From Betaproteobacteria bacterium (lineage in GTDB: Bacteria; Pseudomonadota; Gammaproteobacteria; Burkholderiales; SG8-41): a DNA stretch of 39,235 nucleotides. The notes below the pieces were generated by a model. It did not search any database, had not been told where the DNA came from, and saw nothing but the letters and a program-made list of their open reading frames with translations. The stretch is from positions 1-39,235 of the forward strand of contig JANPOH010000388.1 in assembly GCA_031427895.1 (NCBI GenBank). The letters run 5' to 3'. A program made the translations under genes and the position numbers. This document shows positions 20,280 to 38,361 of this stretch, one piece after another (positions within the stretch are counted from its first letter, which is position 1; every line of letters begins with the position of its first letter).

Positions 20280-21029
20280 ATGTCAGTCACTATGCGTGAA
20301 ATGCTGGAATGCGGTGTGCATTTTGGACACCAGACCCGATTCTGGCACCCGCGGATGGCGCCGTATATTTTCGGCCACCGCAACCGTATCCACATCGTCA
20401 ATCTCGAAAAAACCATTGTGATGTATCAGGATGCGCTGAAATTCGTGCGCAAACTGACCGCCAATCGCGGCACCGTGCTGTTCGTCGCCACCAAGCGTCA
20501 GGCGCAGGAAATCATCCGTGAAGAAGCGATTCGCTGCGGCACGCCGTTCGTCGATGACCGCTGGCTCGGCGGCATGTTGACCAACTACAAAACGGTCAAG
20601 CAATCGATCAAGCGTCTGAAAGAAATGCAGGCGATGGTGGCCGATGGATCGGTCGAAAAACTCATCAAGAAAGAAGCGCTGATGTTTCAGCGCGAGCTGG
20701 CCAAGCTGGAGCGCAGCCTTGGCGGCATCAAGGACATGGATGGCTTGCCCGATGCGATGTTCGTGATCGATGTGGGCTATCAGAAAAACGCCGTCGCCGA
20801 AGCCAACAAGCTGGGCGTGCCGGTGATCGGCGTGGTGGACACCAATCACACCCCGGAAGGCATTGATTATGTGATTCCGGGTAACGACGACTCCAGCCGT
20901 GCGATACGCCTGTACGCACGTGGCATGGCAGATGCGATTCTCGAAGGCCGCAATGACAGCCTGAATGAAATCGTCACGCCGGCCGGCGGCGAGGAGTTTA
21001 TCGAAGTGGACGAGGGCGAAAGCAAGTAA
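20280..21029 (+). CDS. rpsB: 30S ribosomal protein S2
   Basis: [31 protein letters not shown]. Confidence 0.99.
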
Positions 21030-21047
21030 AGCGCTTAACGATTCAAC

Positions 21048-21084
21048 AAGGGGCGGCTCGGAGACGTGAGCGCCCCTTTTTTTT
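21048..21084 (+). terminator. Intrinsic terminator/attenuator between rpsB and tsf
   Basis: AAGGGGCG-G-CTC...GAG-CGCCCC hairpin followed by T8. Confidence 0.8.
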
Positions 21085-21101
21085 AACGGATGGAGTGTGT
21101 G

Positions 21102-21989
21102 ATGGCGGAAATTACGGCTGGCATGGTGAAAGAATTGCGCGAGAAGACCGACGCGCCGATGATGGAATGTAAAAAGGCGCTGACCGAAGCCGTCGGCGAC
21201 ATGAGCAAGGCAGAGGATATTCTGCGGGTGAAGCTCGGCAATAAGGCAACCAAGGCGGCGTCCCGCGTGGCGGCCGAAGGCGTGGTCGCCACGCACGTTG
21301 CGGCGGACGGCAAACTGGGCGCGATCCTCGAAGTCAATTGCGAAACTGATTTCGTGGCGAAGAACACGGATTTTCTGGCGTTTTCGGCGGCGGCCGCGGG
21401 GCTGGTGGCGAGCAAGAACCCGGCTGACGTGGCGGCGTTGTCGACGCTGGAGTTGAATGGCACGTCGGTCGAAGAAGCCCGCAAGGCGCTGGTAGGCAAG
21501 CTTGGCGAAAACGTCAGTCTGCGCCGCTTTGTGCGCATGCCGGCGCAAGGAAAACTCACCACCTACATTCATGGCGGCGCGAAAATCGGCGTGATGATTG
21601 ATGTGGTGGGCGGCAGTGATGTCCTGGCCAAGGATCTGGCCATGCAAATTGCTGCAACCAAGCCGGTGTCGCTGGCGAAGGAGCAGGTTCCCGCGGAACT
21701 GATTCAGAAAGAGCGCGAGGTCGCGGCGGCCAAGGCGGCGGAGTCCGGCAAACCCGCCGACATCATGGCTAAAATGGTCGAAGGATCGGTGCAGAAATAC
21801 CTGAAAGAAGTCACGCTGCTCGGTCAGCCGTTTGTCAAGAACGATAAGCAAACCATCGAGCAATTGCTGAAGGCGAACCATGCGACCGTGGCGTCGTTTA
21901 CGCTTTATATTGTCGGCGAAGGGCTGGAGAAGAAGAAGGATGACTTCGCCGCCGAAGTGAAAGCGGCGGTGAGCGCTGCAAGCAAATAG
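21102..21989 (+). CDS. tsf: Elongation factor Ts
   Basis: [37 protein letters not shown]. Confidence 0.99.
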
Positions 21990-22030
21990 TAATTTAGTTA
22001 TTAAAAACAAACAGTTAGGAAACTCTGCCT

Positions 22031-22750
22031 ATGTCGGACAAACCCCTCTACAAACGCATCCTGGTCAAACTGAGCGGCGAGGCGTTGATGGGTGAGGACA
22101 GCTACGGCATCAATCAGGATGTGATCGAACGCATCGTTGACGAAATCGGCGATGTGGCGAAGTTGGGCGTTGAAATCGCGGTGGTGATCGGCGGCGGCAA
22201 TATTTTTCGCGGCGTGGCGCCGGCGGCAGCGCATATGGATCGCGCCACCGCCGATTACATGGGCATGCTCGCTACGATCATGAACGCGCTCGCCTTGCAG
22301 GATGCGATGCGCCGCGCCAACCTTATCAGCCGCGTGCAGTCGGCCCTGAACGTGGAGCAGGTGGTTGAACCCTATATTCGGGGCAAGGCCATGCGCTACC
22401 TTGAAGAAGGCAAGATTGTGATTTTCGCGGCGGGCACGGGCAACCCCTTTTTCACTACCGATACCGCAGCGGCGTTGCGCGGCATGGAAATTAACGCCGA
22501 ACTGGTGCTCAAGGCGACCAAGGTGGACGGCGTGTACAGCGCCGACCCCAAAAAGGATGCCAGCGCGGTGCGTTACAAACAATTGTCGTTCGATGAAGCG
22601 ATCATCAAGAATCTGAAAGTGATGGATGCCACGGCGCTGACTTTGTGCCGCGATCAGAAAATGCCGATCAACGTTTTCAGTATTTTTGCACCGGGCGCCT
22701 TGAAGCGCGTGGTGATGGGCGAGGACGAAGGCACCATGGTGCATGTGTAA
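22031..22750 (+). CDS. pyrH: UMP kinase
   Basis: [31 protein letters not shown]. Confidence 0.99.
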
Positions 22751-22771
22751 CTCAGAGTTGCGGAGAAAATC

Positions 22772-23329
22772 ATGATTGCTGATATCAAAAGCACTACCGA
22801 GCAGAAAATGAAAAAGTCGCTCGATGTGCTGAAGACTGATCTTGCCAAAGTGCGCACGGGCCGGGCGCATCCCGGCATACTCGATCATGTGATGGTCGAT
22901 TACTACGGCACACCGACGGCGCTCCCCGGCGTGGCCAATGTCACGCTGATAGACGCGCGCACGATCGGCGTGACCCCCTGGGAAAAGAAAATGACCAGCG
23001 CCGTCGAGAAAGCCATTCGTGACGCGGATTTGGGGCTCAATCCCAGCACCACGGGCGACATCGTGCGCGTGCCGATGCCCTCGCTTACCGAAGAGCGCCG
23101 GCGTGACCTCACCAAGATCGTCAAGGGCGAAGGCGAAACCGCGAAAGTCGCGGTGCGTAATGTGCGTCGCGACGCCAATACGCAGCTTAAAGATCTGCTG
23201 AAGAAAAAATCCATCGCGGAAGACGACGAACGTCGCGCGCAGGAAGACGTCCAGAAGCTTACCGATCGTCACATCGCCGAGATCGACAAGGCGTTGCAGG
23301 TGAAGGAAGTAGAATTGATGGCGGTATAA
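22772..23329 (+). CDS. frr: Ribosome recycling factor
   Basis: [25 protein letters not shown]. Confidence 0.99.
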
Positions 23330-32729: not shown

Positions 32730-33875
32730 ATGAGCGCGCCTGTCATCGCGCTGGTCGCGGGCGAAGCCTCCGGTGATTTACTCGGCGCGCATTTGGTCGC
32801 CGCGCTCACGGCGCGCCGGCCTGACATTCAATTCACCGGTATCGCCGGGCCACGCATGATCGCCGCCGGCGTCAGCGCGTTGTTTCCCATGGAGAAGCTG
32901 GCGGTTCGCGGCTACGTCGAGGTACTCAAGCATTACCTTGAGATCGTCTCGATCCGGCGCCGCCTGAAACAGCATTTGCTGGCGCAACCGCCCGCAGTGT
33001 TCATCGGCATCGACGCACCGGATTTTAATCTCGATCTTGAACGCGCGCTGAAATCCGCCGGCATACCGGTGATTCACTACGTGAGCCCGTCGATCTGGGC
33101 GTGGCGCGGCGAGCGCATACACAAAATCAAGCAAGCGGTGGATCGCGTGCTCACGCTGTTTCCGTTTGAGAGTGAAATTTATAACAAGGCGGGCGTGGCG
33201 GTGAGTTACGTCGGGCATCCGCTGGCGGACATGCTGCACGGCTACGCCTCGATGCGCGAGGTGCGTGCGCGGCTGGCGCTGTCCGACGATGCGCCCGTGG
33301 TTGCCTTGCTGCCCGGCAGCCGCGTGAGCGAGCTGCAAAACATGGCGCACCTTTTCGTGGCCAGCGCGCGGCGCATCGCCGCCGCCGCGCCCGCGGTGAA
33401 ATTTGTCGTGCCACTGGTCAATCGTGAAACTCGCGCTATTTTCGAAAATGCACTCGCCAGCGCGGGTCACATCGACATGCTGATCCTGAATGGAAACGCC
33501 CACGACGCCATCGCCGCCGCCGATGTCGTGCTGGTCGCCTCGGGCACGGCCACGCTCGAAACCGCCTTGCTCCAGCGCCCGATGGTCATCACCTACCGCA
33601 TGCCGCGCCTGAGCTGGTGGATGATGAATCCGCGGCGCTATCAGCCTTATGTCGGGCTGCCCAATATCCTGGCGGGCGAATTCGTCGTGCCGGAATTTTT
33701 GCAGGACGCCGCCACGGCCGAGAACCTGGCGCAAGCCGTGCTCGATCTGCTGCACGACGCACCGCGCCGCGAACGCATACGCCGGCGCTTTGCGGACATG
33801 CTCACTGACTTGCGGCAAAACACCACGCAAAAAGCCGCCGACGCAGTGATGCCTTATCTGGACAAGCGGGTATGA
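32730..33875 (+). CDS. lpxB: Lipid-A-disaccharide synthase
   Basis: [41 protein letters not shown]. Confidence 0.98.
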
Positions 33876-34453
33876 AAAAAACCAAACTCATCGCCGGCGT
33901 GGACGAAGCGGGCAGGGGGCCGTTGGCGGGGCCGGTGTATGCCGCCGCCGTGATACTTTCGCCCGCCGCGCCTATCGACGGCTTGGCCGATTCCAAAAAA
34001 TTGACCGCCAAAAAACGTGACGCGCTTTTCGACGTGATTCAGCGGCGTGCGCTGGCGTGGGCTATCGCCAGCGCCAGCGTCGAAGAAATCGACGACATCA
34101 ATATTTTGCAGGCGAGCCTGCTGGCGATGCGGCGTGCGGTGGAGGCGCTCGCGACGCAGCCGCACGAAATTCTGGTCGATGGTTTGCATTGTCCAGCGGT
34201 GAGCATGCCCGCGCGTGCCATCGTGAAGGGCGATGCAAAGGAGCCGGCCATTTCGGCCGCGTCGATCCTCGCCAAAGTCGCGCGGGATCGCGACATGCAG
34301 AAACTGCACGAACAGTTTCCGCACTACCGCTTTGATCTGCACAAAGGCTACGGCACGGCGGTTCACATGGCCGCCCTGCGCGTACAAGGCGTGTCGCCGG
34401 TGCATCGGAGAAGTTATGCGCCGGTTAGAGAATTATTGTTTAAAAACAAATAG
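33872..34453 (+). CDS. rnhB: Ribonuclease HII
   Basis: [22 protein letters not shown]...[22 protein letters not shown]. Confidence 0.98.
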
Positions 34454-34456
34454 TTA
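34440..34456 (-). promoter_or_regulatory. IHF-like dispersed motif copy at the rnhB/senB junction
   Basis: Minus strand TAACTATTTGTTTTTAA spans both stop codons. Confidence 0.45.
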
Positions 34457-35401
34457 TGTAATTTTCGCTACAGTGCTTTTTAGCGCGGCCCGCTCGCTGG
34501 CATGCGTGACCAACGGCCTTCGCAAGCGGCACTGCGACACCAGTTTTCGATAATAAGCCGCTTCGTTTTCCGCGCGTGACAGCAGCTTAGCCAACGCGCG
34601 CGCATCTTCCAGCGTGTAGTAACCGGCGTAATCTTTTCCCAGCACGCCGATATTCCCCGACACGCGCGAGGCGATCACCGGCACCCTATTCGCCAGCGCC
34701 TCGCTCACCACATTGGCGCCGCCTTCCATGCGCGAGCTGATGACCATCAAACGGCTGCGTGCCAGCAGGCGCAACGCCTTGCCGTGCGCGACTTCGCCGA
34801 GCCAGCGATAGCGCGGCTCGCGCGCCATCCACTGCTGGGCTTCCTGCGCCATTGGCGGCGACATCGCGCCGCCGAGGTGCGTAATGCGGATGCGGCTATC
34901 CCGCGGCAAAAACGCCAATGCAGCCGCTGCGCGAAACGGATCTTTTTCCTCGCGCAGATGGCCGCTGACGGTGATCTCGAAACACGATTTTAATGCGGGT
35001 ACTCGCGGCACGACCCGCGCCGACTGATACACCACGCTGGTTTTCCGGCGCAGCGTGGGCGACAGTTCGGCAAGGCCCATCTCCTGCAACACAATCATGC
35101 GCGTGGCGAGCTGCATTGACTCCTGCGCCGTCTCGTCCGTGTGTATGTCGCGGTAAAGATCGGTGCCCGTCAGCGCCAGTATCAACGGATGATCCGGGCA
35201 GCACAGCGCAAAATTGCGAATTGAATCGTGGCTGCGTCGCGCATGCAGCGCCAGCATCAGATCAACCGGCGCGCCATCCCAATCCATCTGTATCGACACC
35301 GTGTGGCCCAACTCACGCAACATGCCCGCCCAGCGCGTGGCGGTGCCGCGATTGCCGTGACGTGAACCGGGCGCGGCGGGCGTGATGAGAGCGATTTTCA
35401 A
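34454..35401 (-). CDS. senB: SenB-like GT-B glycosyltransferase (putative selenosugar synthase)
   Basis: ITPA...SRHGNR.TA.RW, ALHARRS, LTGTDLYRD, GHLR.EKDP, SRMEGGANV match the SenB/TIGR04348 family as I recall it. Adjacent to senA. TTG start at 35401 (MKIALIT) or 35410. Confidence 0.85.
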   Translation of the reverse strand: MKIALITPAAPGSRHGNRGTATRWAGMLRELGHTVSIQMDWDGAPVDLMLALHARRSHDSIRNFALCCPDHPLILALTGTDLYRDIHTDETAQESMQLATRMIVLQEMGLAELSPTLRRKTSVVYQSARVVPRVPALKSCFEITVSGHLREEKDPFRAAAALAFLPRDSRIRITHLGGAMSPPMAQEAQQWMAREPRYRWLGEVAHGKALRLLARSRLMVISSRMEGGANVVSEALANRVPVIASRVSGNIGVLGKDYAGYYTLEDARALAKLLSRAENEAAYYRKLVSQCRLRRPLVTHASERAALKSTVAKIT

Positions 35402-35448
35402 GATTGGCAATCAGGGATACACTCGTGCAACTATAACAAATGTTCTCG

Positions 35449-36759
35449 ATGACCCCCGCACAAATTGCGCCCGATGCGGCGACGCTCCGCGACATGCTAC
35501 GCGCCGCGCGTGCGCGCACACTGGCGTTCGCCGGCAGCTTGCAGCCCGAACAATGGCTCGGTCCGCGGTTGAACATCGTCAATCCGCCGCTGTGGGAGCT
35601 GGGCCACCTCGCGTGGTTTCAGGAGCACTGGTGTTTACGCCATGGTTTTCATGACGCCAGCGGTTCGCTTGCACCATCCGTGCGCGAGTCAGCAGACGCC
35701 CTTTACAACTCCGCGACCGTTCCGCACGACGCGCGCTGGACGCTGCCGCTGCTGTCAATCGAACAAACGCTGGCGTATCTGCGCGAGGTATTCGATGCCG
35801 TGCAGGCGCGCATTGACCGCGAAGGCGCCACGGAACACCTGCGCTACTTCGTGCAGCTCGCGGTGTTTCACGAAGACATGCATAACGAAGCGTTTCACTA
35901 TACCCGTCAGACGCTGGGGTATGCGGGTGAAAAAGAACCTAAAAAACAAGTAGTTACAACAGAACCATGCAGCGGCGATGCCGTCATCGGCGGCGGGCGG
36001 TTCATGCTCGGCGCGCGGGCGGGCGAAGGTTTTGTGTTCGACAACGAAAAGTGGGCGCATGAAGTCGACGTGCGCCCGTTTCGCATGGCGCGCAGCGCAG
36101 TCACCAACGCCGAGTTTGCCGCGTTCGTGAACGATGGCGGTTATCAGCGGCGCGAATGCTGGAGCGCCGAGGGCTGGCAGTGGCGCACACAGGCGAACGC
36201 CGACGCGCCTGTGTACTGGATCAAGCAGGGCGCGGGTTGGCAAGTGCGCTGCTTCGATCAGACCACCGCACTTGCACGCACCGCCGCCGTGATCCACGTA
36301 AACTGGCATGAGGCCGACGCTTATTGCCACTGGGCGCAACGTCGCCTGCCGACCGAGGCCGAGTGGGAATTCGCCGCCGCCACCGTGCCGGGGGATATCA
36401 CCCGCAAGCGGCGTTATCCGTGGGGCGATACGCTGCCGCGGACGCATCATGCCAACCTGTTTGGGTGGGCATCCGAGCCGGTGGATGTGGCCGCGTTTGC
36501 CGCGGGCGACAGCGCGTGGGGCGTGCGCCAGATGCTTGGCAATGTGTGGGAGTGGACGGCGGACTGGTTTGGACCGTACCCCGGCTTCGTGCGCGACCCG
36601 TATAAAGAATATTCCGAGCCGTGGTTCGGCAAGCACAAAGTGCTGCGCGGCGGCTGCTACGCTACCCGCGCGAGTTTGTTGCGGAACACCTGGCGAAATT
36701 TTTACACGCCAGATCGGCGCGACGTGCTGGCGGGTTTCAGAACCTGCGCGGTGGATTGA
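35449..36759 (+). CDS. senA: SenA-like non-heme iron enzyme (EgtB homologue, putative selenoneine synthase): DinB-like plus FGE-sulfatase domains
   Basis: NPPLWELGHLAWFQEHW and FHEDMHNE supply a 3-His metal site. FVFDNE, RRLPTEAEWE, GNVWEW, VLRGG and RNFY.P.RRD..AGFRTC mark the FGE fold. Start 35440 or 35449. Confidence 0.85.
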   Translation: MTPAQIAPDAATLRDMLRAARARTLAFAGSLQPEQWLGPRLNIVNPPLWELGHLAWFQEHWCLRHGFHDASGSLAPSVRESADALYNSATVPHDARWTLPLLSIEQTLAYLREVFDAVQARIDREGATEHLRYFVQLAVFHEDMHNEAFHYTRQTLGYAGEKEPKKQVVTTEPCSGDAVIGGGRFMLGARAGEGFVFDNEKWAHEVDVRPFRMARSAVTNAEFAAFVNDGGYQRRECWSAEGWQWRTQANADAPVYWIKQGAGWQVRCFDQTTALARTAAVIHVNWHEADAYCHWAQRRLPTEAEWEFAAATVPGDITRKRRYPWGDTLPRTHHANLFGWASEPVDVAAFAAGDSAWGVRQMLGNVWEWTADWFGPYPGFVRDPYKEYSEPWFGKHKVLRGGCYATRASLLRNTWRNFYTPDRRDVLAGFRTCAVD

Positions 36760-36766
36760 GAGTGAC

Positions 36767-37540
36767 GTGAAACAAATTACCTCGGCGGATAACGCGCAAT
36801 TCAAATCGTTGCTGAAATTGGTTGAGTCATCGCGCGAACGCAGGCTTGCGGGGCTGTCGTTGCTCGACGGCGCGCATCTGGTGCAAGCCTACCTGCAACA
36901 TCGCGGCGCACCCGAACAACTCATCGTCAGCCAATCCGGCGCCGGCAAAACGGAAATCAAAACGCTGCTGCAAAGTGCTGCGACGGCGCTGCTGTTAAGC
37001 GACAACCTGTTCAAACAACTGTCGTCGGTAGCCACGCCCACCGGCATCATTGCGGCCATCAAAACACCGCGCCGCGAAACCCTGCCTGCGACGCTCGACA
37101 CCTGTGTCATGCTGGAAGACATCCAGGACCCCGGCAATCTCGGATCAATACTACGCTCGTGCGCCGCCGCAGGCTTAAAACAAATATTCCTTTCAAAACA
37201 AACAGTTAACGCATGGTCGCCGCGCGTGCTGCGCGCGGCCATGGGCGCACATTTCGGTGTGGAGATTTACGAGCGCATCGATCTCATCGCGCTCGCCCGT
37301 GCGTACCCGGGGCGCGTGCTGGTGACGCAATTGGGCGCAACGCAGAGCGTGTTTAACAGTGATCTCACCGGCAAAGTCGCGTTCGTTTTTGGCAACGAAG
37401 GGGCCGGTGTATCCGCTGCGCTGCTGCACTGCGCGCACGAATCGATTGCGATACCCATCAGCGCCGCGACGGAATCTCTTAATGTTGCGGCGGCAGCGGC
37501 GGTGTGCTTGTTTGAGCGGGTGCGGCAACTTCATCAATAA
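36767..37540 (+). CDS. TrmH/SpoU-family RNA 2'-O-methyltransferase
   Basis: GTG start (MKQITSADN), [33 protein letters not shown]. Confidence 0.93.
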
Positions 37541-38361
37541 ATCCGCCGCTCCAACTTAGCCTGCTGCATGATGGTAGTAGCCAGCTCTTCAACTGACTTA
37601 CTCGTGGCGTCCAGAAACGGAATATTCTCGCGGCGCATCAGCGCTTCGGCTTCGCGGATTTCGTATTCGCAGTTTTTTAATTCCGCATAGGTGCTATTGG
37701 GGCGGCGTTCACTGCGGATGCTTTGCAGGCGCGTGGCGGTGATGGTCAGGCCGTAGAGTTTGTGGCGCAGCGGGCGCAGGGATACAGGCAACTGGCGGCC
37801 GCCGAAATCTTCGGGGATGAACGGATAGTTTGCCGCGCGGATGCCGAACTGCATCGACAGATAAAGACACGTGGGCGTTTTGCCGCATCGCGACACGCCG
37901 ACGAGTATTACGTCAGCTTCAGCCAGATCGCGCGTGGACACGCCGTCGTCGTGCGACAGGGTGTAGTTCACCGACTCCATGCGCTTATAGTAATTGACGA
38001 TATCGTTGACGTTGTGGGTGCGCCCGATGGCGTGAGAGGCGCGCGCCCCGAGTTCGTTTTCGAGCGGCGCGATGAAAATCTGGAAGCAATCGAGGAACAG
38101 CGCGTTGGCCTCGCCCACGGCAGCGGCAATTTCGACGTTCGCCAGCGTGCTGATGATAATCGGGCGCAGGCCGTCGGCCACGGCGGCGGCGTTAATGTTT
38201 TGCACCGCTTCTTGCGCTTTATCAAGGTTGTCGATAAAGGGCAGGGTAGTCTCGTGCAAGCCTAGGCCGTCGAACTGCGAGAGCAGGCTGTGACCCAGCA
38301 TCTCGGCGGTGATCGCCGTGCGGTCTGAAACAAAGAAGGCGCTGCGTCGGTGGGCAGTCAT
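37534..38361 (-). CDS. ppsR: PEP synthase regulatory protein (kinase/pyrophosphorylase)
   Basis: [30 protein letters not shown]. Divergent from ppsA. Confidence 0.95.

Follow-up and report, generated by a model that had tools for sequence, protein, structure and literature searches.

The stretch of DNA that we have analyzed, called the window below, is a 39 kb contig (C388) of a draft betaproteobacterial genome, which consists of 625 contigs and is 96% complete, with 6.9% contamination. It contains two genes, senB and senA, which belong to the families of the selenosugar synthase and the selenoneine synthase of the known selenoneine pathway. They are found head-to-head between rnhB, whose stop codon directly adjoins that of senB, and a gene of the SpoU/TrmH methyltransferase family (Table 1). 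A preliminary description of this DNA had reported two head-to-head open reading frames (ORFs) at this place, a GT-B glycosyltransferase and an EgtB-like DinB/FGE protein with a three-histidine site. The ORFs lie at exactly the coordinates that it gave, and Pfam domains and the residues H56/H144/H148 agree with its assignment of both proteins. We consider that this pair is probably a working module of the selenoneine pathway, both inputs of which would be supplied by unlinked genes, and we give this reading a probability of roughly 0.85. It is based on the family membership of the two proteins, on their conserved catalytic residues, on a draft genome that contains every partner gene, and on a layout which is conserved across the lineage.

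SenB matches the TIGR04348 equivalog model with 410.6 bits (cut-off 300), over profile positions 1–309 of 310; the next family reaches 96 bits. Its Pfam domain, Glycos_transf_1, places it among the GT-B/GT4 glycosyltransferases, the closest solved structure is RsSenB (8k5u, E 2.4e-62), and the gene is present in a single copy in the genome. The functional residues of VpSenB are given in the available text of PMC10891094 and PMC11237966: a sugar triad, N20/T23/E231 (within the EGGAHV motif), a selenophosphate pocket, N20/H58/R61/T83/T85/R155, a lysine, K158, responsible for Se-P cleavage, and another functional residue, E239. We have looked for these residues by alignment to RsSenB 8k5u and in an alignment of 12 sequences. 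N20, T23, H56, R59, T81, G82, T83, D84, R153, K156, E229, and E237 are all present in the window SenB, and they are invariant or nearly so in the 12 sequences. The protein retains every residue that mutagenesis has linked to selenophosphate binding, to the sugar triad and to catalysis, as far as the available text of PMC10891094 goes. The sugar-donor triad is complete (N20, T23, E229), and H235 is outside it. The EGGAHV motif is replaced by EGGANV in the window SenB, as it is in 11 of the 12 sequences of the alignment.

SenA reaches 508.6 bits with the NF041186 equivalog model (cut-off 420). The same protein scores 330.5 bits with the EgtB model TIGR03440, short of its cut-off of 360, and 141.2 bits with the model of the OvoA N-terminal domain. 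The matches of both proteins to their curated models are strong, far beyond chance. SenA contains the Pfam domains DinB_2 and FGE-sulfatase, its three-histidine iron site is formed by H56/H144/H148, and the catalytic Tyr388 is also found; R426 is another of its key residues. According to the available text of PMC11030361, the choice between hercynine and histidine is decided by Tyr/Asn/Phe (Tyr366/Asn395/Phe396) versus Met/Gln/Ala. The window SenA has the hercynine motif, Y391/N420/F421, not the M/Q/A of OvsA, and Y/N/F is common to 69 of 70 enzymes encoded next to SenB. Another diagnostic pair is described in the part of 10.1101/2022.04.13.486033 available to us: in all SenA, Arg87 and Asp416 of EgtB are replaced by His and by Phe/Tyr. 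The window SenA has H96 and Y422 at these positions of MthEgtB. H96 is present in all 70 SenB-adjacent enzymes, and R or K is found there in 17 of 17 EgtB-like paralogues.

A phylogenetic tree of 90 sequences agrees with this assignment. It includes the window SenA, 69 further enzymes whose genes adjoin senB, 15 EgtB-like paralogues with two second copies which group with them, and three OvoA-like outgroups, all of them from tblastn matches with at least 380 aligned residues and no stops. The 70 SenB-adjacent enzymes group together in a single clade, with a support of 95 in the Shimodaira–Hasegawa-like approximate likelihood-ratio test (SH-aLRT), and the EgtB-like clade of 17 is separate (99). 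The window SenA lies in a clade of 39 rows which contains core-locus copies only (SH-aLRT 97), nested in a clade of 62 rows (SH-aLRT 93) in which seven SenAs encoded in selD-linked clusters are also found. The EgtB-like paralogues of the relatives lack Tyr388. The preliminary description had identified the pair as senB/senA, and this identification stands: the cut-offs of TIGR04348 and NF041186 are passed, that of EgtB is not. It had also named findings that would speak against its reading, which were an oxidase grouping with canonical EgtB and a glycosyltransferase outside SenB, or, against the use of selenium specifically, a complete genome with no selD. None of them has appeared.

The partner genes are found elsewhere in the genome. 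It had been noted that selD/senC and egtD are missing from the window, and it had been proposed, as one of two alternatives, that selenophosphate and hercynine are supplied from other loci; a search of the genome for selD/senC, egtD, selAB, and selU had been suggested. Whole-genome searches are in agreement: selD and egtD are present solely on contigs C448 and C542, and selA, selB, selU, and a putative selenate-binding protein are found on other contigs, as shown in Table 1. The in-frame TGA of selD is at the active-site position, so the selenophosphate synthetase would itself be a selenoprotein. Every full-length selD copy of the same family has one TGA, and in the other families of the order most copies lack it. 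A search downstream of this TGA gave no SECIS-like fold (z-score -0.72, like shuffled sequences); reading the codon as selenocysteine (Sec) is based on its position and on its conservation in relatives. In 22 of 29 relatives' loci selD adjoins selU, which argues for a housekeeping SelD, not a dedicated SenC. The whole-genome search found no EgtB above the cut-off, so hercynine would not be diverted from an ergothioneine pathway.

Table 1. Features of the senB/senA locus and partner genes in the same draft genome
Feature	Position	Strand	Details
senB, predicted selenosugar synthase (Se-glycosyltransferase)	34454-35410	minus	318 aa from first TTG; TIGR04348
Spacer separating the divergent start codons	35411-35439		29 nt
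senA, predicted selenoneine synthase (non-heme iron selenoxide synthase)	35440-36759	plus	439 aa; NF041186
rnhB (RNase HII), left boundary	33872-34453	plus	Context only, outside pathway; NF000596 284.2 bits, cut-off 251
SpoU/TrmH-family RNA 2'-O-methyltransferase (RlmB-like), right boundary	~36770-37540 (start approximate)	plus	Context only
selD, single copy	C448:20-1096, at contig start		In-frame TGA in GGGUGCK; NF002098 523 bits read as Sec
egtD	C542		410.8 bits; no EgtB adjoining
selA, selB	C164		
selU	C343		
tRNA-Sec	C254		
Putative selenate-binding protein	C365		347.5 bits, cut-off 250

Of 12 egtD loci in relatives, 6 have a gene coding for an MFS-type transporter after egtD, and in one of these (L068:2408-3613) the two genes share a few bases. 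This transporter could carry hercynine or selenoneine. The corresponding gene in the genome studied here (C542; L008:6055-6792, minus strand) is disrupted: It appears as two tblastn pieces in different frames, with residues 86–223 missing. This break could be an assembly error.

These genes suggest the following pathway. The single SelD, itself containing Sec (GGGUGCK), would make selenophosphate, and SenB would join it to a UDP-sugar, with Lys156 cleaving the Se-P bond, to give a 1-seleno-sugar. The stand-alone EgtD would trimethylate histidine to hercynine. SenA, with its iron bound by H56/H144/H148 and with Tyr388, would attach the selenosugar at C2 of hercynine, forming a selenoxide, which would then shed the sugar to give selenoneine. 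There being no dedicated senC, selenocysteine, selenouridine, and selenoneine would all be served by one SelD. Expression of the pair, the enzyme activities and the product are what we infer from the gene content. Among public sequencing runs, a search listed DNA metagenomes only and no RNA data set.

We have compared the locus with those of 60 relatives. One of them, G027, is an unpublished genome, which is included in the tallies for SenB, SelD, EgtD, and SenA; it is also one row of an alignment, one of the 29 loci and one row of the tree, and no conclusion rests on it. SenB is found above the cut-off in 43 of the 60 relatives; within the genus this holds for 19 of 20, and within the family for 34 of 36. 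Among 29 relatives' loci, 24 present the divergent senB and senA flanked by rnhB/lpxB and/or trmH, and in three others the pair has none of these flanks inside 1.5 kb. The rest are L011, with senB alone between rnhB and trmH, and L010, with egtD-senA and senB-selD. Of the 31 same-family genomes with both senB and selD, none has the two on a single contig.

A broader survey covers the 80 best SenB loci in contigs of one genome per species. The hits are those most similar to the query, so this is a biased sample. The divergent pair in the rnhB/trmH locus, with no selD in the flank, is found in 29 of the 80, and senB beside trmH/rnhB with no senA in 23. In 8 loci senA and selD are found together, 2 have senB and selD with no senA, 10 have senA without selD in other contexts, and another 8 have senB alone in other contexts. 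The flanks are bounded by contig ends, and extend for 3 kb or more in each direction in 24 of the 39 loci which are positive for senA and negative for selD. Record titles of the 80 loci correspond to uncultured Burkholderiales/Betaproteobacteria, Sulfuricella, Sulfuriferula, Thiobacillus, and others. The preliminary description considered it unusual that only two genes, in divergent orientation, are found, and that they lie at this place. These counts do not agree with that view: The divergent, dispersed arrangement is typical of the lineage.

Published data point in the same direction. The available part of 10.1101/2022.04.13.486033 gives 827 three-gene clusters among 2,353 TIGR04348 genes, and in Table 1 of PMC13674229, 8.1% of NHISS neighbourhoods contain senB and 6.3% contain senC. 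These counts already imply that there are many senB genes with no senC nearby. Full-text literature searching, judged mostly by titles and the openings of abstracts, found no paper describing the rnhB-senB-senA-trmH arrangement, with the divergent pair in the middle, and preprint supplements may show such layouts.

The partner genes accompany the pair in most relatives. SelD is present in 39 and EgtD in 40 of the 43 SenB-positive genomes; those with no EgtD are G014, G017, and G054, the last of which has only senB. SenA is above the cut-off in 39 of the 43, and in G018, G035, and G036 the match stays below the cut-off, either truncated where the contig ends or split into pieces. In the same genus, selD is found in 19 of 20 genomes and egtD in 17 of 20. 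A case of joint loss is G015, of the same genus and 97% complete, where senA and egtD are both lost and selD is kept. Its senB position (L095:2059-3057) is occupied by an intact ORF of 332 amino acids, 25% identical to SenB and with 72 bits on TIGR04348. The N20/T23, HARR, TGTD, and EGGANV motifs are all replaced and the catalytic residues are gone: judged by its residues, this ORF is a decayed or repurposed SenB. In G031, a 1.9-Mb genome, trmH comes directly after rnhB, and an EgtB-like gene adjoins egtD instead.

Several observations weigh against a working module, and they correspond to two other explanations. One of them is that the pathway is incomplete or silent: the contigs with selD and/or egtD might come from a contaminating genome, or the pair might be a decaying remnant. 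The contamination and the number of contigs given above would allow this, and both contigs have been assigned to the same organism via binning, a similar G+C and the same gene set in relatives. Besides, some SenB-positive genomes have no detectable selD: G010, which is 95% complete and has senAB, and G021, G025, and G053, which are 76–85% complete. Two genomes positive for SenB and SenA, G014 (62% complete) and G017 (84%), have no detectable egtD, and the G015 locus shows that decay is possible. On the other hand, both ORFs in the window are intact, with all catalytic residues, and the genes that could be missing are found in nearly all or most genomes of the genus. The genome's own selD is 82–93% identical to most same-genus copies, the G+C of the partner contigs matches that of the genome, and the Sec machinery that a selD containing TGA needs is present. 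We consider this explanation very unlikely.

The other explanation, which we find just as improbable, is a variant chemistry whose product would not be selenoneine. The acceptor might be a different one (histidine, as in ovoselenol), the donor might be sulfur, or the selenosugar might be different, due to EGGANV and V157E. Two sugar-contact positions of SenB do differ from VpSenB (V157 to E, H235 to N), and there is no dedicated senC near the pair. Besides, when solved relatives of SenA are ordered by pairwise score, the first is an OvsA-YNF mutant (281.8 bits), followed by VpSenA (261.6) and MthEgtB (248.2), and what defines the groups of the tree is the gene neighbourhood together with the model scores, not named characterized SenA or EgtB sequences. 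Nevertheless, the top match (8ux5) is a mutant engineered to be SenA-like, as described in the available text of PMC11030361, and wild-type OvsA scores lower. The acceptor motif is that of SenA, the SenA model outscores the EgtB model, egtD is present in the genome, the joint loss in G015 links it to senA, and the genes for selenium supply are also present. Even with another sugar the product would be selenoneine, since the sugar is released. Sulfur or other-acceptor chemistry, which the preliminary description had offered as a possibility, is rejected: The SenA motif set is complete, and those of EgtB and OvsA are absent. A recent horizontal insertion of the pair is also rejected, with a G+C near the pair (0.61–0.63) which resembles the rest of the window and a layout which is common across genera.

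The known system most similar to the proposed selenoneine module is the senA-senB-senC cluster of Variovorax paradoxus DSM 30034 (Kayrouz et al., preprint 10.1101/2022.04.13.486033; structures 8k5i/8ryz and 8jjq/8rz3/8fbx). The window pair shares both enzyme families with it, and also the residues for catalysis and for the substrates. Its hercynine would be supplied by an egtD that is not part of the core cluster, which is what the preprint proposes for most clusters. In contrast with V. paradoxus, the window pair has no selD in 39 kb, and the sole selD of the genome is of the Sec-containing, selU-linked housekeeping type. The genes are divergent, between rnhB and the SpoU-family gene, no canonical EgtB has been found in the genome, and SenB has EGGANV, not EGGAHV. 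A cluster with senA, senB, and senC within about 5 kb is not found at this locus; the genes of the pathway are present genome-wide. SenA shares with EgtB, of the ergothioneine pathway, the DinB and FGE fold, the three-histidine iron site and hercynine as the expected acceptor; unlike EgtB, it is under the TIGR03440 cut-off and has His96/Tyr422 in place of Arg87/Asp416 of MthEgtB.

Another related system is the ovs (ovoselenol) pathway, which combines OvsA/OvsM with senB/senC. The OvsA family is sister to SenA, and both take the same selenosugar as donor (PMC11030361). In some organisms the ovs genes are chromosomally separated, so the dispersal of such pathways has been described (same source). 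OvsA has M401/Q430/A431 and accepts histidine, while the window enzyme has Y/N/F and its genome contains egtD. One relative, G040, presents a second match to the SenA model (L196, G040:C6:41494-42771, 427 bits) with the OvsA-type residues Met/Gln/Ala/Tyr, the sole M/Q/A case among 70. This genome also carries an egtD-senA-senB-selD cluster, and may make ovoselenol as well. The selD matches at G040:C21:33906-34829 and G056:C3:411473-412390 are each part of a longer open frame (851 and 766 amino acids), so they may correspond to SelD fusion proteins; the candidate in G040 adjoins its sen cluster.

The 23 loci of the survey with senB beside SpoU/TrmH and no senA include L111, L114, L115, L120–L124, L129, L130, L132–L135, L137, L138, and L143, among others; the same layout is found at L011/L096, in G054. 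Their record titles are Sulfuricella, Sulfuriferula, Thiobacillus, and Hydrogenophilales. A whole-genome search of G054, which is 99% complete, found senB together with a selD of the Cys type; no egtD was found, and nothing in it matches the SenA model at E <= 1e-30. No selenium-related genes are found near L111, whose neighbours are FeoB, MotA/MotB, and three ORFs with no family. These loci suggest that the selenosugar may have a senA-independent fate in senB-only lineages, one lead that possibly points to an undescribed selenometabolite.

As far as gene content can tell, this is a known pathway with no sign of new chemistry. The locus carries little weight for new biology, since the enzymes and their chemistry were described in 2022–2024 and curated models name both genes. 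It has a practical consequence: Genome mining that demands a senA-senB-senC cluster would miss whole lineages which would make selenoneine from dispersed genes. A Sec-containing housekeeping SelD may replace SenC, and the freshwater-sediment relatives in the Burkholderiales appear to carry the trait as part of their core genome. A wider proposal, which we consider tentative and rather unlikely as a whole, is that selenoneine is a vertically inherited core trait of this betaproteobacterial family with no dedicated SenC: Selenocysteine, selenouridine, and selenoneine would all draw on one Sec-dependent, selU-linked SelD; selenoneine would be the only thio/seleno-imidazole of the organism, since no EgtB has been found; and the selenosugar would have a second, senA-independent fate in senB-only lineages.

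The remaining genes of the window are housekeeping genes or have no assigned family. Upstream of the pair are lpxD, fabZ, lpxA, lpxB, and rnhB, and downstream the SpoU-family methyltransferase, ppsR, and ppsA. The methyltransferase matches Pfam SpoU_methylase (119 bits) and MRM3-like_sub_bind, and the RlmB models remain under their cut-offs. Other genes, named from their Pfam families, are recR, smc, zipA, ligA, glnD, uppS, cdsA, dxr, rseP, and bamA. A Pfam scan of 23 further ORFs of the window found no selenium-linked family. Concerning senB itself, a second in-frame TTG at codon 4 (35401) yields MKI..., the start found in relatives. This is probably the true start, which would give a protein of 315 amino acids.

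The spacer of 29 nucleotides between the annotated starts means that any shared control region must reach into the coding regions. In relatives the spacers measure about 30–300 nucleotides, as estimated from the ends of tblastn matches. A promoter scan across 33800-37700 gave no sigma-70-like sites, and three terminator-like sites are found there, fewer than in shuffled sequences. Finally, choosing the longest ORFs at window positions 20283-23272 gives two minus-strand ORFs (575 and 423 amino acids) with no Pfam match; the real genes in this region are probably shorter ones on the opposite strand.

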